Shown here piece by piece: positions 17,067-41,449 of a stretch of DNA of 64,000 nt; within the stretch, counting starts at the first letter, position 1, and each line of letters begins with the position of its first letter. Position numbers and translations under genes: made by a program. The notes beneath the pieces are model-generated. The model had not been told where the DNA came from. It did no database searches and worked only from the letters and a program-made list of their open reading frames with translations. The stretch is from the NCBI GenBank assembly GCA_039187035.1, contig JBCCZS010000001.1, positions 2,284-66,283 on the forward strand, read 5' to 3'. The stretch is from Pseudomonadota bacterium (lineage in GTDB: Bacteria > Pseudomonadota > Alphaproteobacteria > Caulobacterales > Parvularculaceae).

Positions 17067-17190
17067 ATGGGATCGACACCCGCGCGCTTGCGGATTGACA
17101 ACCGGTCCGCACGGCGGCTCTGGCTTGCCGCGCAAGGGCTCGCCGAGACGCCGACCGGCGCGTTCAATTCTATTCGGGAATTACGACCGC
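17067..17190 (+). pseudogene. N-terminal remnant of a YcaQ/DUF1006-like winged-helix gene
   Basis: MGSTPARLRIDNRSARRLWLAAQGLAETPTG resembles the family N-terminus (E. coli YcaQ LSLADARNLHLAAQGL). Similarity is lost where the convergent 832-aa gene ends. Confidence 0.4.
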
Positions 17191-19668: not shown

Positions 19669-19962
19669 ACCCCAGACGGACGAGCGTCCGCCTCACGATC
19701 GGATCGGTCAGGCGGTGGCCGCGACAATTTCGTTTAAGAGACTACCAGCTTAGGTGCAAAGCGGAAGGCCGGGCCCCAATTGCGGTGCGCCGGCGCCGAC
19801 GCGTTTTGTGTCAAAAGCCCTTTGCACAGTCCGCGTCCGCTCCGGCTAGCCGCAACGGCGGCGCCCCGATCGCGCGCGCGTACAACGCTCGGTTATTGAT
19901 TTTCCTCCGTATTCGGCGGACCCTCCGGTCAAGCGCGAGAAAGCGCGATGGAGGAACCAGCC

Positions 19963-21228: not shown

Positions 21229-21230
21229 CG

Positions 21231-21260
21231 CGGCGCAGCATTTTTGCTGCGGCGCCGTTT
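21231..21260 (+). terminator. Hairpin / possible intrinsic terminator
   Basis: GCAGCA-TTTT-TGCTGC core with flanking G:C pairs, followed by GTTT, immediately after the M24 stop codon. Confidence 0.45.
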
Positions 21261-21382: not shown

Positions 21383-21416
21383 GAAAAACAAAAAGACATG
21401 ATTGTTTTTTTCTGGC
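21383..21416 (+). promoter_or_regulatory. AT-rich motif copy A (AAAAAGACATGATTGTTTTTTTCTGGC)
   Basis: It shares A-run+AGAC+NN+GATTGTTTTTT+WYTGGC with 31908-31943. It lies about 190 nt upstream of the receptor ATG, within a locally AT-rich stretch. Confidence 0.4.
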
Positions 21417-21599
21417 CACCGCTCCCGCGTTAGTGTTAACGTTCTAAAGTGCGTCGCTAACGCGAAGTGATCCGTGTACGCCTTCGGGCGTGTCCTGACG
21501 GTTCGTTCGGTTGCAGGCGTGCGACGAACAAGGCGCCGAAAAGGCGTTTCACGGCCGCGTCGAGGGGGCTCGGCGGGCCGTTCCTGGGAGGGAATTGTC

Positions 21600-23960: not shown

Positions 23961-25910
23961 ATGATCACACCCTTCGGCACAAGGATCGCCCATCGCGTCG
24001 CGGCGCTATGCGCCGGCTTACTGGCCGCGGTCTTGTCGCCGGCCGGGGTCGGTGCGGAAAAGGCGCGCGTCGGTTCCTGGTCGCAGTATGGCGGCGACGA
24101 CGCGGGCACGCGATACGCGCCGCACGACCAAATCAATCCGCAGACGATTAAGAAGCTCCGGCGGGTTTGGACGTACCGGACGGGCGAGCTGGAGCGCCGT
24201 TCGGCGGCGATGAACGTCAACAGCTCCAACGAAAACACGCCAATCGTCGCAGCCGGCTCCCTGATCGTCTGTACGCCGTTCAACCGCGTCGTCGCGCTTG
24301 ATCCGGCGACGGGCGAAGAACGCTGGACCTTCGACCCGCAGGTGCGCGACGACTTTCCGTTGCCCAATCAATATGTGTGTCGCGGCGTGGCGCAGTGGCG
24401 CGACGCCTCGGCCGACGACGGCGCCGCCTGCGCGCATCGCCTGTTCGTCGCCGCGAACGATTTGCGCGTCATCGCAATCGACGCGCATACGGGAGAACGT
24501 TGCGCCGGTTTCGGCGAAAACGGCGAGGTCCGCGTTCAAACGGTTCGGGCGCAACGAACGCCCGGCGAAATCAAATTCAACTCCGCGCCGGCGGTGGTGA
24601 ACGACGTCGTCGTCGTCGGCTCGTCAATTCTTGACAATGTGCGCACCGACGCGCCGCTCGGCACCGTACGCGCCTTTGACGCACGGACGGGCGCGCCCGC
24701 ATGGACGTTCGACGCGGTGACGCCGACTGCAGACGTCGGTGCGGCGAACGTCTGGACGGCGATGGCGACGGACGACGCGCGCGATCTCGTCTTCCTGCCG
24801 ACGTCGAGCGCGTCGCCCGACTTCTACGGCGGCGAACGCGGCGGCGACAACGAACTCGCCAACGCGATCGTCGCTGTGCGCGGCGCGACCGGCGAGCGGG
24901 TTTGGTCGCAACAACTCGTCCGACACGACGTTTGGGACTACGATTTGCCGTCTCAACCGACGCTCGTCGATTTGCGGCGCGACGGCGGCGTCGTGCCCGC
25001 GGTCGTCCAAACGACGAAGCAGGGCTTCGTTTTCATCTTTCATCGAGAGACCGGCGCGCCGATTTTTCCGCTAACGGAGGTGCCGGTTCCCGCATCGGCG
25101 GCGCTGGGCGAAGCCTTGCCGCGATCCCAACCGGCGCCGAGCCTGCCCGCGCCGCTCGTGCCGCAACGGCTGACGCCGGACATGGCGTTCGGCTTCACGC
25201 CGATCGATAAATCAGCCTGTCGACAAAAGATCGCCGATGCGCGGTCGGAAGGGCTCTTCACGCCGCCGAGCGTTGAGGGAACGATTTTCTATCCGTCGAC
25301 GGCGGGCGGCGCCAATTGGGGCGGGTCCGCGTTTGACCCGGCGCGGCGGCTTCTCTTCGTCAACACCTCGCGCGTTGCGCAACTCATCACGCTCGAACCC
25401 AAGAGCGCAGAGGACGGCGAGGCGGCGAGCGTCGTTTTGTCGGCCAAGGAAGACGTCTCCCCGCAAGACGGCGCGCCCTATCGCGTGCGCCGCGAATGGC
25501 TGTTGTCGCCGCTCGGCGCACCGTGCTCGCCGCCGCCTTGGGGCGGCCTGACGGCGATTAATCCGGATACGGGAGAAACCGTTTGGGACGCGCCGCTCGG
25601 CGACATTCGCGACCGCTTGCCGGTCCCCTTGCCGATGAAAACCAATCTCGGCACGCCCAATATCGGCGGCCCGGTCGCCACCGCAGGGGGCCTCGTCTTC
25701 ATCGCTGCGGCCCAGGACAACTACTTACGCGCTTACCGGTCGGACACCGGCGAGGAAGTCTGGCGCGACAAACTCCCCGCGGGCGGCCAGACGACGCCCA
25801 TGTCCTATGAAGTCGACGGCAAGCAATATGTCGTCATCACGTCGGGACAACATCTTTGGTTCCAAACCCCGCCGGGCGACTACGTCGTCGCCTATGCGCT
25901 GGAGGACTAG
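23961..25910 (+). CDS. PQQ-dependent dehydrogenase (glucose/quinate/shikimate-type propeller, soluble form)
   Basis: Signal peptide, then WSQYGGDDAGTRYAPHDQINPQTIKKLRRVWTYRTGE and repeated W-containing propeller motifs. There is no N-terminal multi-TM anchor. Confidence 0.85.
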   Translation: MITPFGTRIAHRVAALCAGLLAAVLSPAGVGAEKARVGSWSQYGGDDAGTRYAPHDQINPQTIKKLRRVWTYRTGELERRSAAMNVNSSNENTPIVAAGSLIVCTPFNRVVALDPATGEERWTFDPQVRDDFPLPNQYVCRGVAQWRDASADDGAACAHRLFVAANDLRVIAIDAHTGERCAGFGENGEVRVQTVRAQRTPGEIKFNSAPAVVNDVVVVGSSILDNVRTDAPLGTVRAFDARTGAPAWTFDAVTPTADVGAANVWTAMATDDARDLVFLPTSSASPDFYGGERGGDNELANAIVAVRGATGERVWSQQLVRHDVWDYDLPSQPTLVDLRRDGGVVPAVVQTTKQGFVFIFHRETGAPIFPLTEVPVPASAALGEALPRSQPAPSLPAPLVPQRLTPDMAFGFTPIDKSACRQKIADARSEGLFTPPSVEGTIFYPSTAGGANWGGSAFDPARRLLFVNTSRVAQLITLEPKSAEDGEAASVVLSAKEDVSPQDGAPYRVRREWLLSPLGAPCSPPPWGGLTAINPDTGETVWDAPLGDIRDRLPVPLPMKTNLGTPNIGGPVATAGGLVFIAAAQDNYLRAYRSDTGEEVWRDKLPAGGQTTPMSYEVDGKQYVVITSGQHLWFQTPPGDYVVAYALED

Positions 25911-25963: not shown

Positions 25964-27490
25964 TCAGTCGAGCGGTTCGACGTCGAATGCGATGCTGACG
26001 CGTTCGTCGACCGAAAACGGCGTCGTGCGGTGATAGAAAAACGACGGAAACAAAAAGAGCCGCCCTTCCGCCGGCTGAAAGAGCGCAGGCGGCGCCGCCG
26101 GATCCGTGTGGTAATGGGCGGGCGGCCGTCCGACCTCGAACCAACCGGCGGTCGGCTCGTCCGGCGTTGCAGGCGGTAATTTCGGGTAATAGACGCCGCT
26201 CAGCCAATTGGGCGCGTGAATATGCGGTTCAAGTCTGCCGCCGGGGTCCAGGATCGTCCCCCACATCGTCAGGGTCCGCCGTTCGGGAAGGCCGCTGAGA
26301 AAAAGCGCGTCGCGCTGCGGGTCGAGCGCGGCGATATAGTCGTCGACGCAACGCTCGATCCACGTCGCCAGCACGGCGAAGGGGCCGGGCGCGCCGTCGA
26401 GCAATTCGCGGGTCTGGCGGCCTTGCCGCGTCGTCAACCCCGCCGGTTCGAAGGTGAGGGACGGGTGCGCGCGAACGCTATCGGTCAGCATACGGTTGAA
26501 ATCGGCGACGGCGGTCTCGCCGGTCGCCTGCGCAAAGGCGTCCGGCGGCGCGTCGTACTGTCTGACCAGCCGGCTCGTCTCGACCAACGTCCCGAATGCG
26601 TCTGGGTCGTTCAAGACGGAGAACGCGACCGAGCGCAGCGCGAGCGCTGTCGTTTTCTCGCCTGAGGCCGCGAGCGCCGCGTCGGTCGCGTCGAGGGCCT
26701 CGCGCGCCCGGCCCGCGGCGAGAAGAGCGCCGGCGAGGTTCGCATGCGGTTCGGCGCGCTCCGGCGCCGCCGCGGCGACGCCCTCAAAAAGCGCGATCGC
26801 CTCGTCAAGGTCGCCTTGCTTCTCTAGAAGCCCCGCCAAATCGTTGCGTGCCGGCCAATAGTCCGGCTGAGTGTTTTGGACGGCGCGCAACGCTGCGATC
26901 GCGTCGCGCGTGTCGCCGGCCGCGGCGAGGCAAGCGGCGTAATTGCGCCGGACCGGCGCGGCGTCGGGGGCCAGTTCGAGCGCGCGTGCATAGGCGACAA
27001 GCGCGCCGGAAAAATCGCCCATCCGTTTACGGACGACGCCGAGGCTGTTCCACGCCATCGGGTTTTGCGGTGCGGCCGACGTCGCAGCGTCCAGCGCGGC
27101 CTCGGCGTCGCGCCAGCGACCGAGCGCGAGATAGCAATTGCCGAGATTGAGATTGACGCTTCGGTTTGCGGGGTTCAGCCGCCGGGCCTCGGCGAGCGCG
27201 GCGATCGCCTCCTCGTACGCGCCCGTTTGTTTGAGGAAGACGCCGTAATTGTTGTGAAGGTCGGCGTCGTCCGGCGCGGCCGAGAGGCCGCCCAGAAACG
27301 CCTCACGGGCCTGCGCGCTTCGCCCCGACCGGTGGCGCGCGACGCCGAGGAGCCCGAATGCGCGCCCGGATCGCACGCCCGCGCCGACGAGTTGTTCTAG
27401 GAGAACGACCGCGTCGTCGGGGCGGCCTTGCGCGATCGCCCGTGCGGCCTCCTGCAGGGCGGCGTCTCGGTCTTCGTCGTCGATCGACAA
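25964..27490 (-). CDS. TPR-repeat protein fused to a 2OG-Fe(II) oxygenase-like C-terminal domain
   Basis: About 8 TPR-like repeats (AxxxYxxALxxxP pattern), then HIHAPNWLSGVYYPKLP...LFLFPSFFYHRTTPF...ERVSIAFDV. Confidence 0.8.
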   Translation of the reverse strand: MSIDDEDRDAALQEAARAIAQGRPDDAVVLLEQLVGAGVRSGRAFGLLGVARHRSGRSAQAREAFLGGLSAAPDDADLHNNYGVFLKQTGAYEEAIAALAEARRLNPANRSVNLNLGNCYLALGRWRDAEAALDAATSAAPQNPMAWNSLGVVRKRMGDFSGALVAYARALELAPDAAPVRRNYAACLAAAGDTRDAIAALRAVQNTQPDYWPARNDLAGLLEKQGDLDEAIALFEGVAAAAPERAEPHANLAGALLAAGRAREALDATDAALAASGEKTTALALRSVAFSVLNDPDAFGTLVETSRLVRQYDAPPDAFAQATGETAVADFNRMLTDSVRAHPSLTFEPAGLTTRQGRQTRELLDGAPGPFAVLATWIERCVDDYIAALDPQRDALFLSGLPERRTLTMWGTILDPGGRLEPHIHAPNWLSGVYYPKLPPATPDEPTAGWFEVGRPPAHYHTDPAAPPALFQPAEGRLFLFPSFFYHRTTPFSVDERVSIAFDVEPLD

Positions 27491-27902: not shown

Positions 27903-29804
27903 TCACTCGCCGGGCGCCGTCGGCGCGTCGGCCGCTTCAAACACAAGAAGCGCGTTGCCCGGCATGCGGTCGCCGAAGAGATAGCCGGAGTTCACAAGCA
28001 CCCGCCCGTTCGCGACGACGGGGCCGGCGGATTCAATCGAGCCGCCGCGCGCCGTTTCGCCGGATACGGACGGAAAGTCGCGATTGGTGTCGAAGTCCCA
28101 AAGAAGATCGCCGGACGCTTTGTCATAGGCGCGCAAATGGCCGTCAAACGCGCCGGCGAACACGAGGTCCCCGGCGACGGTGACGGGGGCGGAATAGCCG
28201 GGATCGCACGCGGGTTTTTCCTCTTCGGCGCAGGTTAGCGGCGCCGCGGCGAACCAGCGCGTTTCTCCCGTGGCGGCGTCGAGCGCGAAGAGGCCGGGTT
28301 TGCGCTCGCCTTTGAAGCGGCCGATAAACTCCGTGTCGGCGTTCGGCGCGTAGACGGTGCGCCCGTCGCTCGCCATGCCCCAGTGGACGCCGCCGGCGAA
28401 GCCGCCGCGGCCGATCTTCTTTTTCCAAATGAGGGCGCCGTTATCGTCCGGGTCCAGCGCGAACACGTCGCCGGATTTTTGGCCGACGACGACGAGATCG
28501 CGGCCCGTCTCGTCGGTGACGAGCATGGGCGGCGCGCCGATGTCGAGGTCCGGCCCGTTTTCTTCCGGACAATTCGGTCCGCCGCCGATGAAACACGCCA
28601 TGTTCCAGGCGTCTCCGGCGATCGACTGATACGTCCAGCGCACCGCGCCCGTCTTAAGGTCGATCGCGAGCACCGAGTCGCTCGTGTCCGCCGCGGGCGA
28701 GGTGTACGCCTCGCCGGTGCCCACATAGAGAACGCCGCGTTTTTCGTCGATTGTCGGCGAGTTCCAAATCGGCGCGCCGGCCGGGTGAAAGCGGGCGGCG
28801 CCGGCGGCGTTGGTCTCGCCGGTCGGCGCCGGCGTTTGCGGGATCGAGTAGGTTTTCCAAAGGAGCGCGCCGGTCGCGACGTCGAATTTTGCGACGCCGC
28901 CGCGAAACGTGCAGCATTCATAGGCCGGGTCTGCGGCGCTCGCCCACTCGGTCGACGACAACGGCACATAAAGCGCGCCGTCGTAAAGGCGCGGCGACCC
29001 GGTCAGCGTCACGTCCGGGTGCGCGTCCGCGACGGCGCGCCATTGCAGGGCGCCGGTCCGCGCGTCGACCGCATAGACGTGCCCTTGGATGTCGCCGAAG
29101 AGCGCGAGGGGGCCGTCCGGCGTCGCCGCGACGTTGACGGCGTTGCGTACTTCCGCGTCCGCGGCGAACGTCCATCGCGCGCAGCCGCTTGCGAAATCGA
29201 GCGCGTAGACCGCGCCGCCCTGGCTGCCGACAAAGACGACGTCGCCGTAGACCGTAGGTTGGCTGCGCGCGCGGCTCGCGCCCGGATACGCGAACGCCCA
29301 TTTCAACTCCAGGCGCGCGGCGTCTTCCTTTGAGAGGCCGGCGCTCTCCGCGTCGACCGCGCGGGTGCCGGCGAGCGTCAGGCCCCACCCTTCGAATGCG
29401 GGGCGCGCGTCGGCAACGGTTCGGTCCGTGCACATCTTAACCGGTTTCGAACCGGCTGACGTCCCGCCGAGAAACGCGGCGAGCGCGGAGATTTCCTCCG
29501 ACGTCAGACCTTCGGCTTGGGTTTGCATGACGCCGCTCGTCAACGCGGCGGCGATCGCGTCGGGCCCGATGACTTGGAACATGACGGCGTGCGGCGCCTT
29601 CGGCACGCCGCCCATATGGCAAGAGGCGCATCGCTCCGCAAAGAGACCGGCGGCGTCGACGTCGCCATGGGGTGCGGCGGGCGCGGCGGCTTCCGGTTTT
29701 GTCGGAATGCTCGCGGGAGCGGCCTGCGCGATCGCTCCGGCGGCAAGGATAGCGACTGCGACGGCTGGGGCGACGGCGCGGATCATCAAGTCTATGGCGT
29801 GCAT
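27903..29804 (-). CDS. PQQ-type beta-propeller dehydrogenase with N-terminal cytochrome c domain (polyvinyl-alcohol-dehydrogenase-like architecture)
   Basis: Signal peptide, haem c site CASCHMGG, then a PQQ-like repeat propeller (GGAVYALD, GHVYAVDARTGALQW, and others). Confidence 0.85.
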   Translation of the reverse strand: MHAIDLMIRAVAPAVAVAILAAGAIAQAAPASIPTKPEAAAPAAPHGDVDAAGLFAERCASCHMGGVPKAPHAVMFQVIGPDAIAAALTSGVMQTQAEGLTSEEISALAAFLGGTSAGSKPVKMCTDRTVADARPAFEGWGLTLAGTRAVDAESAGLSKEDAARLELKWAFAYPGASRARSQPTVYGDVVFVGSQGGAVYALDFASGCARWTFAADAEVRNAVNVAATPDGPLALFGDIQGHVYAVDARTGALQWRAVADAHPDVTLTGSPRLYDGALYVPLSSTEWASAADPAYECCTFRGGVAKFDVATGALLWKTYSIPQTPAPTGETNAAGAARFHPAGAPIWNSPTIDEKRGVLYVGTGEAYTSPAADTSDSVLAIDLKTGAVRWTYQSIAGDAWNMACFIGGGPNCPEENGPDLDIGAPPMLVTDETGRDLVVVGQKSGDVFALDPDDNGALIWKKKIGRGGFAGGVHWGMASDGRTVYAPNADTEFIGRFKGERKPGLFALDAATGETRWFAAAPLTCAEEEKPACDPGYSAPVTVAGDLVFAGAFDGHLRAYDKASGDLLWDFDTNRDFPSVSGETARGGSIESAGPVVANGRVLVNSGYLFGDRMPGNALLVFEAADAPTAPGE

Positions 29805-29831: not shown

Positions 29832-30848
29832 TCAGGCGGCGTAGCCCGCCGCGCGCCGCGCGGCCGCGACGATGTCGTCTTTCGACGGAACGTAGGCGGC
29901 CTCGAGCGCGGGCGAGGCCGGCACGGGGGTGTGCGGCGCGGTGACTTTCTCGACCGGCGCTCTGAGCGAGGAAAACGCCTCGGCCGCCGCGAGCCCCGCT
30001 ATTTCCGATGCGAAGGAACAAATCGGCGTCGCTTCGTCGACGACCACGAGGCGACCGGTCTTCTCAATCGAATCGAGAATGCTGTCGGCGTCGAACGGAG
30101 AGAGCGACCGTGGATCGATCACTTCGGCCGAGACGCCCTCGGCCTCCAGCGCCTGCGCGGCTTCGTCGGCGACGAGCGCCATGCGGCCGATCCCGACGAT
30201 GGTGACGTCGGCGCCCTCGCGGACGATCCGTGCCTTGCCGAACGGCACGACGTAATCGCCGTCCGGCACGTCGCCTTCGTCGCCGAGCAACATCTTGTGT
30301 TCGCAGAAGATCACGGGGTCTTCATCGCGGATCGCCTGGATCAACATGCCCTTCGCGTCGTACGGCGTCGTGGGCAAGACGACTTTCAGGCCGGGAATAT
30401 GCGCGAAGATCGGATAGCAGGCCTGCGAGTGCTGCGGCCCTGCGCCGATCCCGGCGCCGACCATGGTGCGGATGACCATGGGCGCGCCGCGTTGATTGCC
30501 GAACATGTACCGAAACTTCGCGGCCTGATTATAAATCTGGTCGAAGCAAACGCCGAAGAAATCCGCGAACATGAGTTCGGCGACGGGGCGCAGTCCGGTC
30601 AAGGCGGCGCCGGCCGCGGCGCCCATAATGGCGGATTCCGAAATCGGCGTGTCGATGACGCGCCCGGCGCCGAATTCCGTATGCAGACCGGCGGTGAGCC
30701 CCATCACGCCGCCGGCTTTTTCGTCGTCGCCGGCGGTCCCGCCGCGCCCGCCCGCGACGTCCTCGCCGATGACGACGACGTTCGGGTCGCGGCGCATTTC
30801 GGTGCGCAGCGCGTCCGTGATCGCTTCGCGTAAGGTGATCTTCGGCAT
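29832..30848 (-). CDS. 2-oxoacid/acetoin dehydrogenase E1 component beta subunit
   Basis: MPKITLREAITDALRTEMRRDPNVVVIGEDV..., with transketolase-like pyrimidine-binding and C-terminal domains. Confidence 0.9.
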   Translation of the reverse strand: MPKITLREAITDALRTEMRRDPNVVVIGEDVAGGRGGTAGDDEKAGGVMGLTAGLHTEFGAGRVIDTPISESAIMGAAAGAALTGLRPVAELMFADFFGVCFDQIYNQAAKFRYMFGNQRGAPMVIRTMVGAGIGAGPQHSQACYPIFAHIPGLKVVLPTTPYDAKGMLIQAIRDEDPVIFCEHKMLLGDEGDVPDGDYVVPFGKARIVREGADVTIVGIGRMALVADEAAQALEAEGVSAEVIDPRSLSPFDADSILDSIEKTGRLVVVDEATPICSFASEIAGLAAAEAFSSLRAPVEKVTAPHTPVPASPALEAAYVPSKDDIVAAARRAAGYAA

Positions 30849-30860
30849 GGCCCGCTCCCT

Positions 30861-31832
30861 TTACGCGTACTCGGCGTAGACGTGATCGTGAAGCGCCGAC
30901 GGGTCGGGCGTCGGCGCGGCTTTGGCGAACGCGACCGCCTTGTCGATTTCTTCAGCGACTTCGGCGTCGATATCGTCAAAGGTCTGCGCGTCAAGCAGGC
31001 CGGCCTCGAGCACCTTCGCTTTAAAGATCGTAAGCGGATCTTTTTCGACCTGGAGGCCGGCGATTTCTTCTTTGTTGCGATAGGCTTGCGGGTCCCCTTC
31101 GTAATGGCCGTACCAGCGATAGGCGACGCACTCGATGCTCGAGGGACCCTCGCCGGCGCGCGCCCGCTCGACCGCGTCGCGCACCGCGTCGTGCACGGTG
31201 AAGAAGTCCGAACCGTCGATGCGCACGCCGGGCATGCCGAAGCCGGCCGCGCGCGTCGCAATATCTTTCGCGCCGCAATGATAATCGACGCCGGTGAATT
31301 CGGCGTAGCCGTTGTTCTCGTAGAGGAAAATGACGGGAAGCTTGAGGACCACCGCCAAATTCATCGCTTCAAAAACGGTTCCCTGGTTCGAGGCCCCGTC
31401 GCCGATGAACGCGACCGCGACCCGGTCGGTCCCGCGGGTTTTCGCCGAGAGCGCAGCGCCGACCGCGAGCGGCGGCGAGCCGCCGACGATCGCGTTCGCG
31501 CCGAGCATGCCTTTCGATAGGTCCGCGATATGCATCGATCCGCCCTTGCCGCCGCACAGGCCGTCGGCGCGGCAGTAAATCTCCAGCGTCATGTCGCGGA
31601 TGTCGCACCCTTTGGCGATGCAGTGGCCGTGCCCGCGGTGGGTCGAGCCGATATAATCCTCGTCGCTGAGGTGCGCGCAAACGCCGGCTGCTATGGCTTC
31701 TTGCCCGCAATAGAGATGAATGAAGCCGGGCATCGTGCCGGTCATGAACTCTTTGCGCATGCGTTCGTCGAAGTCCCGCATACGGCGCATTTTGAGGTAC
31801 GCGGTACGCAGATCGTCGCGACTTAGCTGCAT
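30861..31832 (-). CDS. TPP-dependent 2-oxoacid/acetoin dehydrogenase E1 component alpha subunit
   Basis: GFIHLYCGQEAIAAGV and the TPP motif GDGASNQGTVFEAMNLA...LPVIFLYENNGY. Confidence 0.9.
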   Translation of the reverse strand: MQLSRDDLRTAYLKMRRMRDFDERMRKEFMTGTMPGFIHLYCGQEAIAAGVCAHLSDEDYIGSTHRGHGHCIAKGCDIRDMTLEIYCRADGLCGGKGGSMHIADLSKGMLGANAIVGGSPPLAVGAALSAKTRGTDRVAVAFIGDGASNQGTVFEAMNLAVVLKLPVIFLYENNGYAEFTGVDYHCGAKDIATRAAGFGMPGVRIDGSDFFTVHDAVRDAVERARAGEGPSSIECVAYRWYGHYEGDPQAYRNKEEIAGLQVEKDPLTIFKAKVLEAGLLDAQTFDDIDAEVAEEIDKAVAFAKAAPTPDPSALHDHVYAEYA

Positions 31833-31907: not shown

Positions 31908-31943
31908 AATTAAAAAAACAGACGCGATTGTTTTTTATTGGCG
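31908..31943 (+). promoter_or_regulatory. AT-rich motif copy B (AAAAAAACAGACGCGATTGTTTTTTATTGGC)
   Basis: It sits in the 155-bp divergent region between the E1 alpha and SDR genes and shares its core with 21383-21416. It contains the inverted arms AAAAAACA / TGTTTTTT. Confidence 0.4.
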
Positions 31944-31987: not shown

Positions 31988-32767
31988 ATGAGCCGACGCT
32001 TTGACGGAAAAGCGGCGTTCGTAACGGGTGCGGCCAGCGGCATCGGCGCGGCGACGGCGCGCAAGCTCCATGACGAAGGCGCGTGCGTCTTTGCAGCGGA
32101 CGTCGCCTTCGAGAACGCGGAATGGTCCGCCGCCGACGACCGGTTTTTCCGCGCCCGCCTCGACGTTACGGACGGCGCGGCGTGCGCGTCGGCGATCCGC
32201 GGCGCGGCCGAACGCGCCGGCCGGCTCGACGTCGCGGTTCTCAACGCCGGGATCGGGTATTCCAAGCCGTTCGAAGAGACGACTGCTGACGATTGGCGCA
32301 GTTTGTACGCCGTAAACGTCGACGGCGTTTACCACTGCTGTCAGGCCGTCATCGCGGTGATGAAGGAAACGGCGCCGGACCGCTCCTGGGACGACGCCGC
32401 GTCGATCGTGATCACGTCGTCGGTCGTCGGGCAGGTCGGGACGGCGGACGCCAGCGCGTATGCGAGCACCAAAGGCGCGGTGCGCATCCTCGCGAAATCG
32501 CTCGGTCTTTATTGCGCCCAGCGCGACTACCGCATCCGCGTCAACTCCGTGCACCCGGGCGTCATCGACACGCCGCTCCTTTGGGCCGACTTGGAGCGCA
32601 CCGGCGCGGCGCAAGACGCGTTTAAGGCGGTCAACGCCGCCCAGCCGATCGGGCGGATCGGCCGGCCGGAAGACATTGCGAACGGCGTCGCGTATCTGGC
32701 GTCCGACGACGCCTCTTTCGTGACCGGATCCGAACTCGTTATCGACGGGGGGTATACGGCTTTATGA
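31988..32767 (+). CDS. Short-chain dehydrogenase/reductase (SDR)
   Basis: GKAAFVTGAASGIGAATA, NAGI, and YASTKGAVRILAKS (YxxxK). Confidence 0.9.
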   Translation: MSRRFDGKAAFVTGAASGIGAATARKLHDEGACVFAADVAFENAEWSAADDRFFRARLDVTDGAACASAIRGAAERAGRLDVAVLNAGIGYSKPFEETTADDWRSLYAVNVDGVYHCCQAVIAVMKETAPDRSWDDAASIVITSSVVGQVGTADASAYASTKGAVRILAKSLGLYCAQRDYRIRVNSVHPGVIDTPLLWADLERTGAAQDAFKAVNAAQPIGRIGRPEDIANGVAYLASDDASFVTGSELVIDGGYTAL

Positions 32768-33558
32768 CGCAAGAGGCCGCCGCCTCGACGAACCTTGAGG
32801 GACGCGTCGCTCTTATTACGGGCGGCGCGTCCGGGATTGGCCAGGCGACGGCGCGCGCCTTCGCCGCAGCCGGCGCGCGGGTCGCGATCCTCGACAACGC
32901 CGATGACGCCGCGATCGCCGCGGAAGTCGACGCGCTGCGCGCCGACGGCGCCGACGCGTTCGGCGTGCGGGCGGACATATCGGACGCGGACGAGGCGGCG
33001 CGCGCCGTCGGCGCGGTCGCGGACGCGCTCGGCCCGGTCGACGCGCTCGTCAACAACGCCGGCGTTTGGGAACCGAACCCGGTGCCGGACAGCCCGTTGG
33101 CGTTGTTCGAGCGCCACATCGACGTGAACGTAAAGGGCACGTTTTTCGTCACGCACGCCTGCCTGCCGTCGATGTTGGAAAAAGGCGCCGGCACGATCGT
33201 CAACGTTTCTTCCGTCAGCGGCGTCGCCGGCCGCGCCGGCGACAGCGCCTATTCGGCCTCGAAAGCCGCGGTCGTGATGCTGACGAAAACCCTCGCCGCG
33301 GAACTCGGCGGGCGGGGCGTACGGATCAACTGTCTCGCGCCGGGGGCCGTCGCGACGCCCCTGACCGCCGCGCTACGCACGCCCGAGGGCGAGGCCGCCG
33401 TCGCCGAATTGATGGCGACGCACCCGAGCCCCAACGGCCGCTTCTTCATGCCGCCGGAGGACATGGCCTCGATCATTGTGTTTTTGTCGAGCGCGCCGTC
33501 GAAAGCGATCCACGGCGCAACGATCGTCGCCGACGAAGGCATCACGGCGACGATGTGA
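32764..33558 (+). CDS. Short-chain dehydrogenase/reductase (SDR)
   Basis: GRVALITGGASGIGQATA, NNAGV, and YSASKAAVVMLTKT. ATGA overlap with the upstream SDR. Confidence 0.9.
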   Translation: MTQEAAASTNLEGRVALITGGASGIGQATARAFAAAGARVAILDNADDAAIAAEVDALRADGADAFGVRADISDADEAARAVGAVADALGPVDALVNNAGVWEPNPVPDSPLALFERHIDVNVKGTFFVTHACLPSMLEKGAGTIVNVSSVSGVAGRAGDSAYSASKAAVVMLTKTLAAELGGRGVRINCLAPGAVATPLTAALRTPEGEAAVAELMATHPSPNGRFFMPPEDMASIIVFLSSAPSKAIHGATIVADEGITATM

Positions 33559-33625
33559 TCGCCCGCGCCGCCGGACCCTAACGCCCGCAAGTCCCCGGCG
33601 CCCGCAAGACCAAAGGGAGGAAACG

Positions 33626-34075
33626 ATGGCCGAACCGCTAACCGACCCGTCCAGCCTGGGCGACATCATCATCAATACGAACACGGCGCCGTGGCACGAT
33701 CTCGGCGAAGGAACGACGTTTCAGCTTCTGCGCTTCAGCGAGGTGACCGGCGACTGGGCGCTCTATGTGCGCATGGCGCCGGGCGCGACATTCGCGCCGC
33801 ACAAACACCTGAGCGACGGCGAATACTTCGTCACGAAAGGCGAACTCGTCTACGATGTCGGCTCGGCTCCAGCGGGAACGTACGGTTACGAACCGATCGG
33901 CTCGATCCACCATGAAGCGCACTGCACGGTCGAAACTGAGCTCTTGTTTTTGGGGCACGGACCCGTCGCCTTCACCGCCGAGGACGGATCAATCCGCTTT
34001 ATTCTCGACTATGAATTCCTTAAAGGGATCGCCGACCAAAAAGTCGACGCCGACATTTCCGGCGAGGCGTACTAG
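33626..34075 (+). CDS. Cupin-domain protein (ChrR-like cupin)
   Basis: AGGGAGG RBS. PGATFAPHKHLSDGEYFVTKGEL...GYEPIGSIHHEAH cupin metal motifs. Confidence 0.7.
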   Translation: MAEPLTDPSSLGDIIINTNTAPWHDLGEGTTFQLLRFSEVTGDWALYVRMAPGATFAPHKHLSDGEYFVTKGELVYDVGSAPAGTYGYEPIGSIHHEAHCTVETELLFLGHGPVAFTAEDGSIRFILDYEFLKGIADQKVDADISGEAY

Positions 34076-34383: not shown

Positions 34384-36531
34384 TTACAAAGCGACGTCGA
34401 CGGAGATGCCGTAGACGCGCCGCGGGCCGAGGGTCGCGCAGCAATCGAAATCGATTACGCCGTCGGCGTCGAAATCGAACGTATCCTGATAGACGAAGTA
34501 GTCCTCGTTGAAGGCGTTGTCGGCGAAGAGCATCACCATCAAGCCGTCGCCGCGCCACCCGCCGCGAAAGTTCGCGACGATATAGTCGCCCACGGGATCG
34601 GGCGGAAAGTTCTGGATGTCGCGGGAGAGATAGGCGTCGACATATTTCGCGTCGCCCCCGACGAAGAAGCCCGACGGCAAGACGTAGTTAAAGCCGCCGG
34701 CGATCGTCCAATTGGGCGCCTCCGGGAAGTCGGAGCCGGTGAGATCAAATTCCGTTGTGACGAATTCGTCAAACTCGGTCTCGACATAGCCGATCGAGGC
34801 GAAGGCGGACAATTCGGCCGTAATGTCGCCGCGCATCTCCAATTCAAAGCCGTAAAGGCTCGATTGCCCGGCGTTCGCCGTGATGACCGACTGAAAGTCG
34901 CCCGGTACGAGCTGCAATTCGACCTGCTGGTTCTGCCAGTCCGTATAGAAAGCGTTGGCGTTTACCGTCGCTTGGCCGTCGAAGAGTTCGCTGCGGAATG
35001 ACACTTCATACGTCCACGTTGTTTCTGCATCAAACGACGTAGCCGCCTCGGTCACAGGGTTGACGAAAACGCCGCCGGCGCGGAAGCCGCGCGCGGCCGT
35101 AAAGCCGATCGTGCGGTCCGGGAGGAATTCCCAGACGATCGAGCCCTTGGGAAGAAACTCGACGGAATCATCCGTTCCGCCGCCGATCGGAACGGCGGCG
35201 AGGGCGGGGTTGAAGGCGCCGGACGCCGCAAAGAGTTCCACGTCTTGCTCTTCATACTGAACGCGGCCGCCGGCGATAATGTCGACGGTCGGGAGGATCG
35301 GCCAGGTCGCCTCGCCGAATATCGCGACGTTGGTCGTGTCGATTTCTGCGGCCGTGGCGTTCGTGCTGCCGCCGCCGAAGAAGGTCGAGCGGCGGTTGAT
35401 GTCGCGCGTGTCCTCGGTCAGGTAGTAAAGGCCGGCGACCCACGAGACCGCATCTTCGCCCTTGTCGAAGTTCAGCAAGAATTCCTGCGTGATCAAACGT
35501 TGGTCGATCTCGCCGTTCGAGGTGAAGACCTCACCGGGCGTGCCTTCGTTGATCGAGGGTTTGTTGGTTTCCGAATAGGACGCCGTCGTCAGTGAGCGGA
35601 ACGACAGCGCGTCGGTCAGATCTTTCGTGACGTCGAACGAGAAGTTATGCGCCTCGCCTTCGCGATTATCTTGGAAGAAGGGTAGGCTGGCGTTCAGATC
35701 GCCGCGACGCGCGCTGTAGGGAAAGCCGAGCCCCGGGCCGGCGATATCGTCATAGTGCGGAGAATCGGCCGAGTAAGAATAAGTGAGCAGGCCGCTCCAC
35801 CCGGGAAGGGCGTCGGGCTCGATCAGAAGTTTGCCGCGGATCTGATAATATTCGTCGTCGATGAAGTTGTCGAAACGATCAAAGCCGCTATAGCCCTGAT
35901 AGTTGAGATCGCTCTCTTCGGTCTGGAATTCGGCGGCGATCCGAAACGCGATTTGGTCGTCGAGGATCGGCCCGCCGAACGCGACGCCCGCTTGCCAGGT
36001 TTCGAGCGTGCCGACCGTCAGGTTGGCTTGCGCTTCCCATTCGTAGGTCGGGTTGTTGGTGGTGACGTAAATGGCGCCGGCGAGCGCGGCGCGTCCTGAA
36101 AGCGTCGATTGCGGGCCGCGATAGACCTCAATTTGCGACACGTCCCAGGCGCCGCGCGCGCCGCGCCTCGCGCCTTGGACCGTTTGCTGGGCGCCGTCGA
36201 TGTAAAGCGCCGCGAGCGGGCTGCCGCCCGGCGTCAGCCCTTCTGAGTTGACGCCGCGAATGATGAAGCCCGCGTCCGACCAGTCGGCGTCGAGAATGTT
36301 CGCCGAGACGCGGAAGGCGTCACGAAAGCTCTGGATACCGAGTTCGCGAATTTGCTCTTCGGAAACGACCGCGACGCTCGCTTGCGTATCTTGCAAGGTG
36401 CGGCCCCGTTTCTCGCCGAAGACGATAATTTCGTCGTCCTCGATTTCCTCGACCGGTTGCGCGAGCGCGGCGCCGGCCGAGCACAGAACGGCGAGCGCGC
36501 TCGCCCCTAATAGAATCCCTTTGAACGTCAT
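34384..36531 (-). CDS. TonB-dependent receptor
   Basis: Signal MTFKGILLGASALAVLCSAGAALAQ, plug motifs (IEVYRGPQSTLSGRAALAGAIYV), and a beta-barrel. Confidence 0.9.
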   Translation of the reverse strand: MTFKGILLGASALAVLCSAGAALAQPVEEIEDDEIIVFGEKRGRTLQDTQASVAVVSEEQIRELGIQSFRDAFRVSANILDADWSDAGFIIRGVNSEGLTPGGSPLAALYIDGAQQTVQGARRGARGAWDVSQIEVYRGPQSTLSGRAALAGAIYVTTNNPTYEWEAQANLTVGTLETWQAGVAFGGPILDDQIAFRIAAEFQTEESDLNYQGYSGFDRFDNFIDDEYYQIRGKLLIEPDALPGWSGLLTYSYSADSPHYDDIAGPGLGFPYSARRGDLNASLPFFQDNREGEAHNFSFDVTKDLTDALSFRSLTTASYSETNKPSINEGTPGEVFTSNGEIDQRLITQEFLLNFDKGEDAVSWVAGLYYLTEDTRDINRRSTFFGGGSTNATAAEIDTTNVAIFGEATWPILPTVDIIAGGRVQYEEQDVELFAASGAFNPALAAVPIGGGTDDSVEFLPKGSIVWEFLPDRTIGFTAARGFRAGGVFVNPVTEAATSFDAETTWTYEVSFRSELFDGQATVNANAFYTDWQNQQVELQLVPGDFQSVITANAGQSSLYGFELEMRGDITAELSAFASIGYVETEFDEFVTTEFDLTGSDFPEAPNWTIAGGFNYVLPSGFFVGGDAKYVDAYLSRDIQNFPPDPVGDYIVANFRGGWRGDGLMVMLFADNAFNEDYFVYQDTFDFDADGVIDFDCCATLGPRRVYGISVDVAL

Positions 36532-37037: not shown

Positions 37038-37670
37038 ATGAGCGAGGCGCGACGCTTAAAGCGCGGTGGCGGCGCCGCGGCGGACGCCGGCGCCCCGCCG
37101 CAGGCCGAGGCCCCAGCGATCGGGGCCCCAGCCATTGACGACCACGGCGGGGCCGCAGACCGCAACCGGGTCACCGCCCTTTACAGCGATTACGCCGCCC
37201 AACTGTCGGCGACCCTGCGCAGCATTTATGGCGACGGGCCGCCCGATCCCGACGACGTCGCCCAACAGGCGTTCCAAAATGTAATGGAGCGCGGCGACAT
37301 CGGATCGGTCAAAAACCTCAAAGCGTTCGTTTGGCGCACGGCCCGCAACCTGATCTTCAAAGCGCACCGAACCCGCGAAACGCGGGCGCGATACGATTAT
37401 GAGATCGATCAGCTGTTTTTTCCGCTCCGGACCGACGAACTGACCCCTGAAAGGATCATAGTAGCAAGAGAGCAATTGCAGGCGATCAACCGGGCGTTGC
37501 TGGAGATGCCGCCCAAGCGACGGCGCGCCTTCCTCCTGCACCGGTTGCACGGGCTGACGGTGTCCGACGTCGCCCGAAGGCTAGGCGTGAGCCGGTCGAC
37601 GGCGGACGAGCACATCGTCCGCGCCGCGACCGAAATCAACAGGCTCCTCCTCGATATGACGGAGACATGA
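37038..37670 (+). CDS. ECF (FecI-type) RNA polymerase sigma factor
   Basis: Sigma-70 region 2 (DDVAQQAFQNVME...) and region 4 (LEMPPKRRRAFLLHRLHGLTVSDVARRLGVSRSTADEHI). The exact start is uncertain. Confidence 0.85.
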   Translation: MSEARRLKRGGGAAADAGAPPQAEAPAIGAPAIDDHGGAADRNRVTALYSDYAAQLSATLRSIYGDGPPDPDDVAQQAFQNVMERGDIGSVKNLKAFVWRTARNLIFKAHRTRETRARYDYEIDQLFFPLRTDELTPERIIVAREQLQAINRALLEMPPKRRRAFLLHRLHGLTVSDVARRLGVSRSTADEHIVRAATEINRLLLDMTET

Positions 37671-38737
37671 GCATGCCGGATACATCCAGCCGTTTCGACG
37701 CGGACGACGTTCTCTACGTCGCCCACAAATGGCGGTCGCTGCTCAACAGCCCCGATGCGACGGACGCGGATCGCGCGCGTTTCGAGGCGTGGATTGACGC
37801 CGATCCGCGGCACGCGGACGTCTTCGGCCAAGCCGTCACCTTTTGGGAGGCGTTCGGACACGTATCGCAAAGCGATCTCGACCCGGAAACGCTGAAGCCG
37901 GTCGTTCGCGAACGGATCGCGCACTTTGTCGGGGCCGTGGCGGCGGTCGCCGCGACGCCGGCGGTACGCGTCGCGAGGGCGGCCGCGGTCGGCCTCGTAA
38001 TCGTCGGCGCCGTCGTGCTCAACGGCGTCGGCGCGCCGCGAATGGCGGCGGCGCCCGTCGTCGCGGCCTATTCAACGGCGAAAGGCGCAGTGAAGTCGGT
38101 CGCCCTCAACGACGGGTCGACGATCACCATGGGGCCTGAGACCAGCCTCGAGGCGACCTATTCCGCTAACGCGAGACGCATTCGGCTCACGACGGGCGCG
38201 GCGTATTTCGACGTGGCGCGCGACGCGGCGCGGCCGTTCTCGGTGGAAGCCGGCGACTTGGAGGTGGTGGCGCTGGGCACCGCGTTCGACGTGCGCGGCG
38301 GCGACCGGGTCTGGCGCGTCGCGGTGGCGGAAGGCGCGGTCGACGTCGCGTATCCGCCGGCCACCGATGGGGCGACCGACGAGACGCTCGGCGCGCAGGC
38401 GACGTCGAGAAACCTGTCCGCAGGGGAACAGATCGCCGCGACGCGCACGCGCGGCTTGTCCGAGGTGAGCCCCATCGCGCCCGTCGACGTCGGGGCCTGG
38501 CGATCCGGCCGACTATTCTACGACGGCGCGTCGCTCCGCGAGGTGGTGTCGGACCTCAACCGATACTCCGAGACGCCCATAATGATCGACGACGGCGGCG
38601 AGGGAATCGCCGACCTTCGCTTACGCGGCGGTTTCCGCGCCGACGATATCGACGGCTTGCTCAACGCGACGGCGTTCATTCACCCCGTCACGATCGATCG
38701 CAGCGATCCCGACGTCGTCGTGATCCGCGCGCGCTGA
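37667..38737 (+). CDS. FecR-family anti-sigma / transmembrane sensor
   Basis: ATGA overlap with the sigma gene. N-terminal RFEAWIDADPRHA, a single TM segment, and a FecR domain (VALGTAFDV...). Confidence 0.85.
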   Translation: MSMPDTSSRFDADDVLYVAHKWRSLLNSPDATDADRARFEAWIDADPRHADVFGQAVTFWEAFGHVSQSDLDPETLKPVVRERIAHFVGAVAAVAATPAVRVARAAAVGLVIVGAVVLNGVGAPRMAAAPVVAAYSTAKGAVKSVALNDGSTITMGPETSLEATYSANARRIRLTTGAAYFDVARDAARPFSVEAGDLEVVALGTAFDVRGGDRVWRVAVAEGAVDVAYPPATDGATDETLGAQATSRNLSAGEQIAATRTRGLSEVSPIAPVDVGAWRSGRLFYDGASLREVVSDLNRYSETPIMIDDGGEGIADLRLRGGFRADDIDGLLNATAFIHPVTIDRSDPDVVVIRAR

Positions 38738-38872
38738 ACCGACGGGGCGGCGGCCCGCCGTCGATTGCAGAATTCATCCCCGCATCGCCCGGTAAATCCG
38801 ATCGGTCAGGAGTCATAGGATCGGAGAAGCGAACGCGAGCCGTTCGCGGGGCTTAGCGTCTAGGGGTATGAA

Positions 38873-41449
38873 ATGGGGCTGACTGTCCGTAACCGCCGGG
38901 CGACGTCCGCGCTGTGCAGCGTCGCGTCGTGTCTGGCTTTAGCGACGGCGACGCCCGCCGCCGTCGCGCAAGAACCCGTCGATGCGGCCGCCGCCGCGCC
39001 AATCGACATTCCGGCGGGGCCGTTGGGAAATGCGATCAACAGCATCGTCCGGATTTACGGCGTCAACGTGCTCGTCGATGAATCCCTCGTCGAAGGACGC
39101 GACGCGCCGGCCGTTTCCGGCGAATTGACGATCAACGGCGCGCTTGATGCGCTGCTCGCCGGCTCGGGCCTCGAGGCGACATACCTCACGGACGGAACCG
39201 TCGTTATCGCCCGACAACGCGCCGCGACGGACGCCGATGCGCCCGTCGACGCCGAGGTCCGAACCGCCGATACGATCGTCGTGACCGGCCAAAAGCGCGA
39301 ACGCACGCTCCTGGAAAGCGACGTGTCGGCGACGGTGCTCGGCGCCCGCGATATCGAGGAGTTGCGCCTTCGCGACATCCGCCGGCTCGACGACGTCGTC
39401 CCCAACGTGCAGTTCGCCCAGGGCAGCCAGGTGAGCCCGGTGTTCGCCTCGATCCGGGGCATTGAATCAAACCCCGCCATCGTCAACCGCGCCGCCATTT
39501 ACATCGACGGCGTGCCGTTTCGCGAGTTGAGCAACGCGGTGCTCGACCAGATTGAATCGATCGAGGTTCTGCGCGGCCCGCAATCGACGCTCTACGGCGC
39601 CAATAGCGAGGCGGGGCTGTTCATCATCAACTCCCGGCAGCCGACCGAGGCGTTTGAAGCCGAATTTCGCGCCGACGCGTCTGCTTATAATGGCGACTAC
39701 GCCTATAATTTCAGCGGATTTGCGGGCGGGCCGCTGATCGAAGACACGCTCTTCGGTTCGGTCGTCGTCAGCTACACGAACGAGGACTCGTTCTTACAAA
39801 ATCCGTTCGCGCCCGAGGTCTCCACGGCTGAAATACGAGATACGTTCGTCCAGGGGCGGCTCACCTTCACGCCGAACGACAGCCTAACGATTAAAGCGAC
39901 AGCCTACTATCTCGATGTCGAGGCGCCGGGCTTGTATGAAGGGGCGTTCGCGCCCATCGACACTGCGGCGTTTGACGACAACATCGCCTTCGATCCGTTC
40001 ACGCAGCAAGTTCTCGGGCCGTATATCGACGTCTTCCACGAGGGTCGCGAAATCGGCGATTGGGAGTTCTTCAGCGACACCGATCAATTGACCGAAGAGC
40101 GCGACGTCGTCGCCGGGTTCAGCCTGACCCAGGACGTGGGCGACGGCAAGATCGACCTTGCGGCGTCCTATTCAAATCTTGATGCGGACAGTTTTGGACT
40201 TGATATCGACTTCTCGGCCTTCCCGCTCCAGGTCGGCTTCGCCAATGACGAGTTGACGGTCTGGTCCGGCGAGCTTCGTTACACGTCCCCCGACAGCGAC
40301 GTTTTCGAATACATCGTAGGCGTCTCTTTCTACAAGGACGAACGCGTTAGCGAGCGAAACGTGACCTTCGCCGACCCGTTCAACGGCGGGTTCTTGCCGT
40401 TTGACGAAATCCCGGAATTGTTCGCCGAGAGCGAAGATTACGCCGTGTTCGGATCGGGGAGTTTCGGCTTAGGGGCGCCGGGGCTTAAAGGGACGATCGG
40501 GCTGCGTTACGACAACGCGACCCGGCGCGCGAGCCAGGAGGGCTATGAAGTCACGTTCGGTCAGCAGACGCTCTTTTTGTTGGACGCGGAAGGCGAGACG
40601 ACCTTCGAGCAATGGTTGCCGCGGTTTTCCGTGAACTACGAAGCGAGCGACCGGTTCAGCGTTTTTGCAAGCGCGTCGCGCGGATACATTCCCGGGGGGT
40701 TCAACATCGCGGCGTCGGCTGATCCGACCGTTGCGGAGGATATCTTCCGCTTCGACGAAGAGAAGATCTGGAATTATGAGATCGGCGTGAAGACCATTTT
40801 TCCGGACGGCCGCGGGTACCTCAACGCCGCCGTCTTTTACATCGAGTCCGACGGGTGGCAGGAAGTGCAGCTTCTAACGGACCCGGTCACGGGATCGATT
40901 ACGACGCCCACGTTTTTGTCCGCCGACGCCGACATCGTCAGCAAGGGTTTTGAAATCGAAGGGGTTTATCGCCCGATCAACAATCTCAAAATCAGCGCAA
41001 GCTTCGGATATACCGATGCGGAGTATCGAAACTTCGACTTCGAGGTCGGCGCGCGGGGGCAAATCGCTCAGATTGAAGATCTGAGCGGCGCCGGGGTGAA
41101 ACTCGTTCCGGAATATGACCTCAACGTGTCCGCGCTCTATGAATTTAGTTGGGGCGGTTATGTCCGCGGCGAAATCAACGGCCAGGGCGACATGCCCTTG
41201 GAGGAACGCACGCGCGAAATCGACCCGTTCGCCGATCGGGCGGTGCAAGAAGCGGTGACGCGCTTTAATCTCTACGCCGGTTATGAAACGGCCGGATATT
41301 CCCTTTCCGTCTTCGCTGAAAATATCACCGACGAACGCGTCGTTTCCGGCCTGGCGTTTCAAAACCTCTTCTTCGGGAATGACGGCACGTTTTACGGCCC
41401 GCTCGACGCCCCGCGGGTCGTGGGCGTCGAAGTCGAGGCGCGTTTTTAG
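38873..41449 (+). CDS. TonB-dependent transducer (receptor with N-terminal STN signalling domain)
   Basis: IDIPAGPLGNAINSIVRIYGVNVLVDESLVEGRDAPAVSGELTINGALDALLAGSGL before the plug. Terminal VEVEARF. Confidence 0.9.
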   Translation: MGLTVRNRRATSALCSVASCLALATATPAAVAQEPVDAAAAAPIDIPAGPLGNAINSIVRIYGVNVLVDESLVEGRDAPAVSGELTINGALDALLAGSGLEATYLTDGTVVIARQRAATDADAPVDAEVRTADTIVVTGQKRERTLLESDVSATVLGARDIEELRLRDIRRLDDVVPNVQFAQGSQVSPVFASIRGIESNPAIVNRAAIYIDGVPFRELSNAVLDQIESIEVLRGPQSTLYGANSEAGLFIINSRQPTEAFEAEFRADASAYNGDYAYNFSGFAGGPLIEDTLFGSVVVSYTNEDSFLQNPFAPEVSTAEIRDTFVQGRLTFTPNDSLTIKATAYYLDVEAPGLYEGAFAPIDTAAFDDNIAFDPFTQQVLGPYIDVFHEGREIGDWEFFSDTDQLTEERDVVAGFSLTQDVGDGKIDLAASYSNLDADSFGLDIDFSAFPLQVGFANDELTVWSGELRYTSPDSDVFEYIVGVSFYKDERVSERNVTFADPFNGGFLPFDEIPELFAESEDYAVFGSGSFGLGAPGLKGTIGLRYDNATRRASQEGYEVTFGQQTLFLLDAEGETTFEQWLPRFSVNYEASDRFSVFASASRGYIPGGFNIAASADPTVAEDIFRFDEEKIWNYEIGVKTIFPDGRGYLNAAVFYIESDGWQEVQLLTDPVTGSITTPTFLSADADIVSKGFEIEGVYRPINNLKISASFGYTDAEYRNFDFEVGARGQIAQIEDLSGAGVKLVPEYDLNVSALYEFSWGGYVRGEINGQGDMPLEERTREIDPFADRAVQEAVTRFNLYAGYETAGYSLSVFAENITDERVVSGLAFQNLFFGNDGTFYGPLDAPRVVGVEVEARF

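Follow-up and report, generated by a model that had tools for sequence, protein, structure and literature searches.

A 24-bp palindromic promoter motif in a Parvularculaceae bacterium as the candidate operator of a CymR-like TetR catabolic regulon

Two inverted repeats and the genes around them

Two AT-rich strings lie in separate promoter regions of the stretch of DNA analysed here (64,000 nt of contig JBCCZS010000001.1 from a Parvularculaceae bacterium, hereafter the window), and the question is whether they mark genes that answer to one regulator, as the first-pass annotation had proposed. Both strings were found where it had placed them. Copy B, TTAAAAAAACAGACGCGATTGTTTTTTATTGGC, occupies positions 31910-31942 within the 155-bp gap between the start of the E1 alpha gene (31832, minus strand) and the ATG of an SDR gene (31988). 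Copy A, GAAAAACAAAAAGACATGATTGTTTTTTTCTGGC, occupies positions 21383-21416, and the ATG of a TonB-dependent receptor (TBDR) gene at 21601 follows 185 nt downstream. The likeness between the copies, originally put at about 22 of 29 aligned positions, proved slightly better, with 25 of 31 positions identical in the best ungapped local alignment. No similarity was detected in the flanks past these 31 nt, and a longer repeat or mobile element was rejected on this ground. Only about eleven 30-nt stretches of the window contain at least 70% A+T, and the copies are two of these. The 11-mer GATTGTTTTTT common to both occurs at just these two window positions; with one mismatch allowed, two or more matches were present in 16 of 100 shuffles, so that the 11-mer alone is weak evidence.

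Both copies are inverted repeats, a feature absent from the first-pass annotation. In copy B the dyad is well formed, each half having a single mismatch, and the predicted 24-bp palindromic operator, to which no strand is assigned, reads AAAAAACAGAC-GC-GATTGTTTTTT at 31913-31936. The dyad centre falls between 31924 and 31925; from there it is 63.5 nt to the ATG of the SDR gene and 92.5 nt to the E1 alpha start. The predicted 24-bp operator of copy A, likewise without strand, reads AACAAAAAGAC-AT-GATTGTTTTTT at 21387-21410 and is centred between 21398 and 21399, with the TBDR ATG 202 nt downstream. Its right half is consensus-like and its left half degenerate, with an A in place of a 99%-conserved C in column 10 of the weight matrix described below.

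The genes around copy A are transcribed in one direction. Upstream lies a gene for an M24 (creatinase/prolidase-like) protein (19948-21228, plus strand), from a family that is motif-associated in other genomes and has no site upstream here; directly upstream of this gene is an 832-aa ORF (17170-19668, minus strand) with a strong GC3 signal and no Pfam match. A GC-rich hairpin followed by UUU (21227-21259, plus strand; -20.9 kcal/mol, z = -2.8) begins at the M24 stop codon and is a likely terminator dividing the M24 gene from the copy-A promoter region. The first gene downstream of copy A encodes the TBDR (21601-23879, plus strand; Pfam Plug and TonB_dep_Rec_b-barrel), and a co-directional gene for a PQQ-dependent dehydrogenase (23961-25910, plus strand; PF01011, 732 bits), which we infer to belong to the TBDR operon, follows after an 81-nt gap. 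The TBDR leader after copy A (21417-21600) is unusually long, about 160-185 nt.

Copy B is flanked by two units that point away from each other. Leftward, the first gene encodes a TPP-dependent E1 alpha (AcoA/PDH-E1-alpha-like; 30861-31832, minus strand), and the same unit contains E1 beta (29832-30848, minus strand) and a PQQ beta-propeller protein with an N-terminal cytochrome c domain (27903-29804, minus strand), both assigned by Pfam search. Rightward, the first gene encodes an SDR oxidoreductase (31988-32767, plus strand), whose stop overlaps a second SDR gene (32764-33558, plus strand) by 4 nt; the last gene of the unit encodes a ChrR-type cupin_7 protein (33476-34075, plus strand), the true start of which is probably after 33558. 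In the plasmid collection, acoAB-like genes were only about 66% identical to those of the window. Outside the window, the E1 alpha itself was found only on a 5.3-kb Logan contig, an identical copy being present in sample SRR22824305, and searches for the TBDR and PQQ proteins returned no record of them. Between the two motif-associated units, a minus-strand gene (25964-27490) encodes a TPR-repeat protein with a C-terminal 2OG-Fe(II) oxygenase domain; it lies 412 nt downstream of the PQQ/cytochrome c gene and has no counterpart in related loci.

The first-pass annotation had seen no regulator gene inside the island, and this absence extends further for one family, with no TetR homologue anywhere in the 64-kb window. 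The window encodes two other sets of regulators, an ECF sigma/FecR pair (37.0-38.7 kb) and a two-component pair of the OmpR type (12.6-14.6 kb); to our knowledge, neither type would be expected to bind such a dyad. Beside the island, a FecI-type ECF sigma, a FecR anti-sigma and an STN-domain TonB-dependent transducer (37038-41449, plus strand) form a classic cell-surface signalling cassette, and a further TBDR gene lies at 34384-36531 (minus strand); the palindrome is absent from both. The sole Rfam match of the window is a cobalamin riboswitch at 44722-44833 (minus strand; 34.2 bits against a gathering score of 31.5), downstream of which the minus strand has no ORF of at least 150 aa; the nearest large ORF (44959-46062) is on the plus strand and on the opposite side. 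The AT skew of positions 43001-44000 is strongly negative (-0.31), unlike the remainder of the window.

Conservation and specificity of the motif in other genomes

The comparison began with a set of 80 loci from species-representative genomes encoding relatives of the window E1 alpha (58-72% identity). The 11-mer GATTGTTTTTT was found in 15 of these loci, often directly upstream of E1 alpha, and in locus L007 it forms part of a perfect palindrome. A 30-column weight matrix was built from 88 distinct near-match instances in other organisms, with no window sequence included. These instances gave the consensus dyad AAAAAACAGTC-AT-GACTGTTTTTT, with the core ACAGTC-AT-GACTGT, about 26 informative positions, strict dyad symmetry, and a near-invariant C and G in columns 10 and 21 (31919 and 31930 in copy B).

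When the 64-kb window was scanned with this matrix, copies A (38.9 bits) and B (38.6 bits) were the sole matches, against a median of 43 bits for the other instances, while the rest of the window scored at most 8 bits, if a second, overlapping register of copy A is set aside. In 200 block-shuffles of the window (60-nt blocks, local composition), no score of 18 bits was reached, and none of 20,000 shuffles of the 30-mer of either copy reached its observed score. Since no shuffle of the 30-mers matched, base order matters and not composition alone. The 80 loci contained 108 positions of at least 30 bits, against none in ten block-shuffles. The significance of the copies therefore lies in their fit to the comparison with other sequences and not in the 11-mer by itself; the claim that such a pair is very unlikely by chance stood for the matrix scores and failed for the 11-mer alone.

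These scores bear directly on a chance or generic likeness, namely that the copies are two AT-rich promoter spacers, UP elements or IHF sites in GC-rich DNA. Both copies are low-complexity A/T runs, and the one-mismatch 11-mer was not significant, as such a likeness would have it. Against it, base order was decisive in the shuffles, both copies fit a dyad matrix learned wholly from other organisms, and the motif is restricted to promoters of a single group of gene families, so we regard this explanation as very improbable. The first-pass annotation had offered a shared UP element or IHF-like site as an alternative to a dedicated regulator; the strict dyad with its near-invariant C and G speaks against this. 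The IHF consensus is WATCAANNNNTTR, and on direct reading it is present in neither copy. The trailing WYTGGC, which had been counted as part of the shared element, is not conserved in other instances and was dropped from it. The same TGGC prompted a search for a sigma-54 promoter (TGGCAC-N5-TTGC), in which copy A reads TGGCCA-CCGCT-CCCG and copy B TGGCGC-CCGGC-GGGT; this candidate was rejected, the consensus being absent from both copies and the TGGC unconserved elsewhere.

An A-run, a dyad and a T-run can also form a hairpin, and the consensus does fold (-8.1 kcal/mol, z = -3.1), which would suit a bidirectional intrinsic terminator, a REP/MITE-type repeat or a small structured RNA. The hairpins of the window copies, however, are weak (-8.1 and -5.5 kcal/mol, z = -1.4 and -0.3), their AU-rich stem lacks a GC core, and neither copy is called by the terminator scan. 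In addition, 45 of 109 sites are flanked by divergent gene starts and so have no transcript to terminate; the flanks are unconserved, and no Rfam family was matched at copy A, copy B or the TBDR leader. We consider a structural or mobile element of this kind highly unlikely.

Across the 80 loci, 111 sites of at least 18 bits were present in 48, and in the 82 sources comprising these loci, locus L081 and the window, 97 of 114 sites lay outside predicted genes. The families whose 5' ends face the sites were TBDR (20 sites, the family most often adjoining the motif in related loci), Rieske oxygenase alpha (15), E1 alpha (13), SDR (13), acyl-CoA synthetase (13), PQQ/cytochrome c (12), M24-like (12) and ABM (10), with Rieske ferredoxin, ACAD, GST and cupin_7 also represented, the last adjoining sites in L006, L007 and L063. 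The island of the window has the same composition as those of L007, L012, L016, L020 and L029.

As the 80 loci were chosen by their E1 alpha genes, metagenome contigs were also scanned by the motif alone (pattern AANAAACARTCNNGAYTGTTTNTT), which removes this anchoring bias. At least 120 further contigs were obtained, most of 60-70% G+C. Among the matches listed, the families flanking the sites were SDR (at least 24), Rieske oxygenase (at least 19), ACAD (at least 11), 2Fe-2S ferredoxin (at least 10), TBDR (at least 9), ABM (at least 9) and acyl-CoA synthetase (at least 8). Both surveys combined gave more than 150 mostly uncultured proteobacterial contigs and, among the matches listed, about 260 predicted operators. 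Because the same families recur in both surveys, the motif is the mark of a single, specific catabolic regulon. It is no common AT-rich spacer scattered over unrelated genes, the outcome that the first-pass annotation had named as counting against its proposal. A full-text literature search by the motif sequence returned nothing relevant.

The palindrome precedes orthologous TBDR, PQQ-cytochrome c, E1 alpha, SDR and M24 genes in many genomes. Recurrence of this kind is what comparative genomics normally takes as evidence of a regulon, and it supports the proposal of one regulator site common to the TBDR-PQQ promoter and the divergent E1/SDR promoters. The motif was absent upstream in the closest E1 alpha relatives by protein identity, those of Hellea MAGs (the closest), Halieaceae, sphingomonads and Rhodococcus; it therefore tracks the lineage of the regulator and not the E1 gene. 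In two sphingomonad MAG loci (L018, 9878-9898; L023, 3756-3776), the canonical dyad is lacking and TGACTTCTGA(A/T)TCA(C/T)AAGTCA stands instead between ACAD and E1 alpha, a palindrome that uses the same AGTCA hexamer; a TetR like those of family c11, described below, is encoded in L018 as well. Three further loci, L010, L013 and L069 (GC 0.54-0.63), are titled Janthinobacterium lividum, Candidatus Planktophila lacus and Flavobacteriaceae, and their content and motif are as in the gammaproteobacterial loci; these taxon assignments are probably binning errors.

Promoter geometry and candidate regulators

To place the motif within promoters, each site was oriented toward its neighbouring gene, and the best TATAAT-like hexamer was located from the dyad centre. 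Of 135 gene-facing orientations in the 80-locus set, 68 had the hexamer starting at +27 to +31, as did 36 of the 42 with strong hexamers; among the metagenome matches listed, it lay at +28 to +31 in 78 of 131 and, for strong hexamers, in 46 of 60. A third of the orientations without a called gene also showed the hexamer, the gene calls being crude. With the hexamer at about +27 to +31, the dyad centre would lie at about -39.5 to -41.5, and the -35 position holds only a T-run and no -35 box. In the window, the nearest -10-like TAnnnT hexamers start at +33 (copy A toward TBDR), +38 (copy B toward SDR) and +40 (copy B toward E1 alpha), and a simple sigma-70 scan found no canonical promoter in either intergenic region.

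A fixed -10 distance combined with a missing -35 box is seen more often with activators than with repressors. The same operator and regulon might thus be served by a class II-type activator contacting RNA polymerase from about -41.5, either a TetR itself acting positively, as regulators of the Vibrio LuxR/HapR type can, or an unlinked CRP/FNR- or LuxR-like dimer. The recurrence of the hexamer at its fixed distance in both site sets, strongest among the strong hexamers, favours such a protein, as do the lone T-run at -35 and the lack of a canonical sigma-70 promoter in the two window regions. CRP/FNR sites are 22-24-bp dyads with A/T flanks, and the motif resembles class II sites of this family in its size, its A/T-rich flanks, its predicted centre about 41.5 bp upstream of the inferred start and its missing -35 box. 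The cores differ, since neither TGTGA-N6-TCACA (CRP) nor TTGAT-N4-ATCAA (FNR) is like ACAGTC-AT-GACTGT. Vibrio LuxR, HapR and SmcR are TetR-fold global regulators whose binding sites are AT-rich dyads of 20-22 bp and which can both activate and repress; their half-site is different from the present motif, and they are quorum-sensing regulators for which no small-molecule-controlled catabolic regulon is known.

Several further observations weigh against activation. No CRP/FNR family member was among the annotated recurrent gene clusters near sites, and neither LuxR nor any other activator gene recurred there; TetRs alone did. A repressor bound over -53 to -29 would block polymerase too, and the -10-like hexamers of the window are off the class II distance. 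Moreover, members of the TetR family, including CymR as the closest characterised one, are usually repressors (PMC3694467). We consider activation clearly less probable than repression. In its fullest form, it would have a CymR-like TetR or another factor act as a class II-type activator at a rigid 24-bp dyad and drive -35-less promoters of a widespread catabolic regulon, mostly in uncultured Gammaproteobacteria and in the organism of the window, with paralogous TetRs of the clade using one half-site vocabulary at different spacings; this picture, too, we put forward only tentatively.

TetR cluster c11 is the only regulator family repeatedly linked to the motif. An HMM search detected it in 25 of the 80 loci; all but two of these also contain sites (23 loci, Fisher p = 6e-5), while 25 site-bearing loci of this set have no TetR within 10 kb. 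Among the metagenome matches listed, it was present in 28 of 120 motif-anchored contigs and was the third most common family there, always in the order TetR(-)/SDR(+)/(ferredoxin)/site/SDR-ThuA-Rieske-E1alpha-E1beta. A LysR gene divergent from M24 was considered as a general regulator and rejected, as it was present in only three closely related loci (L010, L012, L013).

The own promoter of c11, TTGACT-N17-CATNCT, has related hexamers (CAGTCA, CAATCA, TGACTT) at other spacings and no canonical dyad, and c11 might therefore bind a different site. The c11 TetR/SDR intergenic region (L039, L053, L067 and about 37 other loci) has a conserved 60-nt architecture, TA.CAGTCA-N9-GGTTTCAATCA-N4-TGACTTTTT-N17-CAtnCT, which reads as back-to-back promoters (-35 boxes TTGAAA and TTGACT) interleaved with hexamers of the regulon motif at different spacings.

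In a sister group, TetR-B (seven loci), the perfect 30-bp palindrome ACAAACAAACAGTCTTGACTGTTTGTTTGT lies 34-39 nt before the regulator's own start codon. TTGACT is situated at the dyad centre as the -35 box, and a CATCGT-like -10 box follows 16-17 nt beyond; this would be a textbook autorepression layout, judging from the arrangement of the elements. The inferred -10 box is 22 nt from the centre of the palindrome, and the TetR-B genes of L118, L122, L128, L102, L135 and L151 are apparently leaderless or nearly so, with the start codon about 7-12 nt past it.

The present system shares with the TetR/tetO type of autoregulated operator a palindrome that overlaps the promoter and, in many genomes, a regulator gene beside its targets, and the TetR-B dyad spans its own -35 box as in that paradigm. 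A single-dimer TetR operator is about 15 bp, whereas about 26 positions are informative here; the fixed -10 distance and the window without a regulator gene are also unlike TetR/tetO.

The closest characterised relative is CymR, a TetR-family repressor whose operator cmtO is ACAAACAGACAATCTGGTCTGTTTGT (ACAAACAGAC-AATCTG-GTCTGTTTGT) (PMC3694467) and sits between the promoter and the first gene (PMC1654148). The identity of the CymR query sequence was confirmed by a natural protein, 99% identical to it, whose gene has cymB-C-Aa-Ab-D-E-like neighbours. The neighbours of this protein (SDR, aldehyde dehydrogenase, desaturase-type monooxygenase, reductase, Toluene_X and an acetyl-CoA-synthetase-like protein) correspond to the cym operon. 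Identity to CymR was 38% over 131 aa for TetR-B and 26% over 117 aa for c11. The recognition-helix motifs of the two groups are AGVSRGAQLHH(Y/F)PTK and AGLSRGAMLHHFPSK, and the linked TetRs share with CymR the motif (A)G(V/L)SRGA..HH(F/Y)P(T/S)K. No close match to CymR was found in the plasmid collection, and CymR peptide strings gave no matches in the full text of the literature.

Like the regulon proposed here, the p-cymene/p-cumate operons of Pseudomonas putida F1, controlled by CymR through cmtO/CuO, form a catabolic regulon in which a TetR-family regulator has multiple operators. The half-site AAACAG(A/T)C is common to both, as ACAAACAGAC in cmtO and AAAAACAGTC in the motif, and the left half of copy B reads AAAAACAGAC. 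The half-sites are 2 nt apart in all canonical instances here but 6 nt apart (between 10-mers) in cmtO, and the natural cymB operator (L202) scored 21 bits on the matrix only in a shifted register. The CymR operator in L202 follows the -10 box, whereas the present motif lies upstream, around -40, and the regulon here contains TBDR, PQQ and E1 genes, in contrast to the cym/cmt genes under CymR. No canonical site was found in the cmt-like operons of Polycyclovorans, Solimonas and a Stellaceae MAG, which encode CymR homologues of about 50% identity. These loci (L204 2091, L205 2222, L206 2329) have a common upstream element, (A/C)TTACA(A/G)(G/T)C-N9-CGG(A/T)(A/T)TGT, which may be the own operator of those homologues.

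A predicted catabolic regulon

From these comparisons, it is fairly probable that copies A and B are operators of one regulator, most likely a CymR-like TetR encoded outside the window, that ties three transcription units into one regulon. One dedicated transcription factor would bind the 24-bp dyad at both copies. Copy B would serve back-to-back promoters, with E1alpha-E1beta-PQQ/cytochrome c leftward and SDR-SDR-cupin rightward, and copy A would serve TBDR-PQQ dehydrogenase, so that roughly 12 kb of genes would be controlled together as the regulon of an uncharacterised catabolic pathway. The factor is proposed to be a TetR-family dimer or pair of dimers that covers the -35/upstream region, about -53 to -29, and is released by a substrate or intermediate of the pathway. 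Repression relieved by ligand is taken as the default sign because of the precedent of the TetR family. While the motif, its specificity, the gene content of the regulon, the placement of the site against -10 boxes in other genomes and its genomic linkage to TetR genes are direct observations, we infer that a TetR binds the motif, that it represses, and that the genome of the window encodes it.

The regulon in other genomes covers TonB-dependent uptake, periplasmic PQQ dehydrogenases, Rieske mono-/dioxygenases and ferredoxins, P450, SDRs, acetoin-dehydrogenase-like E1alpha-beta/E2, acyl-CoA synthetase, ACAD, enoyl-CoA hydratase, DUF35/thiolase-like proteins and family III CoA-transferase. This gene content fits a pathway in which hydroxylation and oxidation to an alpha-hydroxyketone would be followed by TPP-dependent C-C cleavage and then by beta-oxidation-like steps, and the substrate would probably be alicyclic or aliphatic. 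For the units of the window, the outline would run from uptake by the TonB receptor through periplasmic PQQ oxidation and SDR oxidation to TPP-dependent C-C cleavage.

Judged from sequence comparison, the element would be an operator of the TetR/CymR type with its regulon, unusual in its size, its conservation and its promoter geometry. The three operons are probably under common control, and annotation and further study should treat the three transcription units found from 21.4 to 34 kb as a single unit. The motif turns anonymous oxidoreductase and receptor genes into a defined regulon, and since the predicted operators mark genes belonging together, they could guide the search for the substrate of the pathway. 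The regulator of the three units is predicted to be encoded elsewhere in the genome, and the candidate regulator-operator pair, with its sharply defined 24-bp site, could serve as an inducible switch like CymR/CuO.
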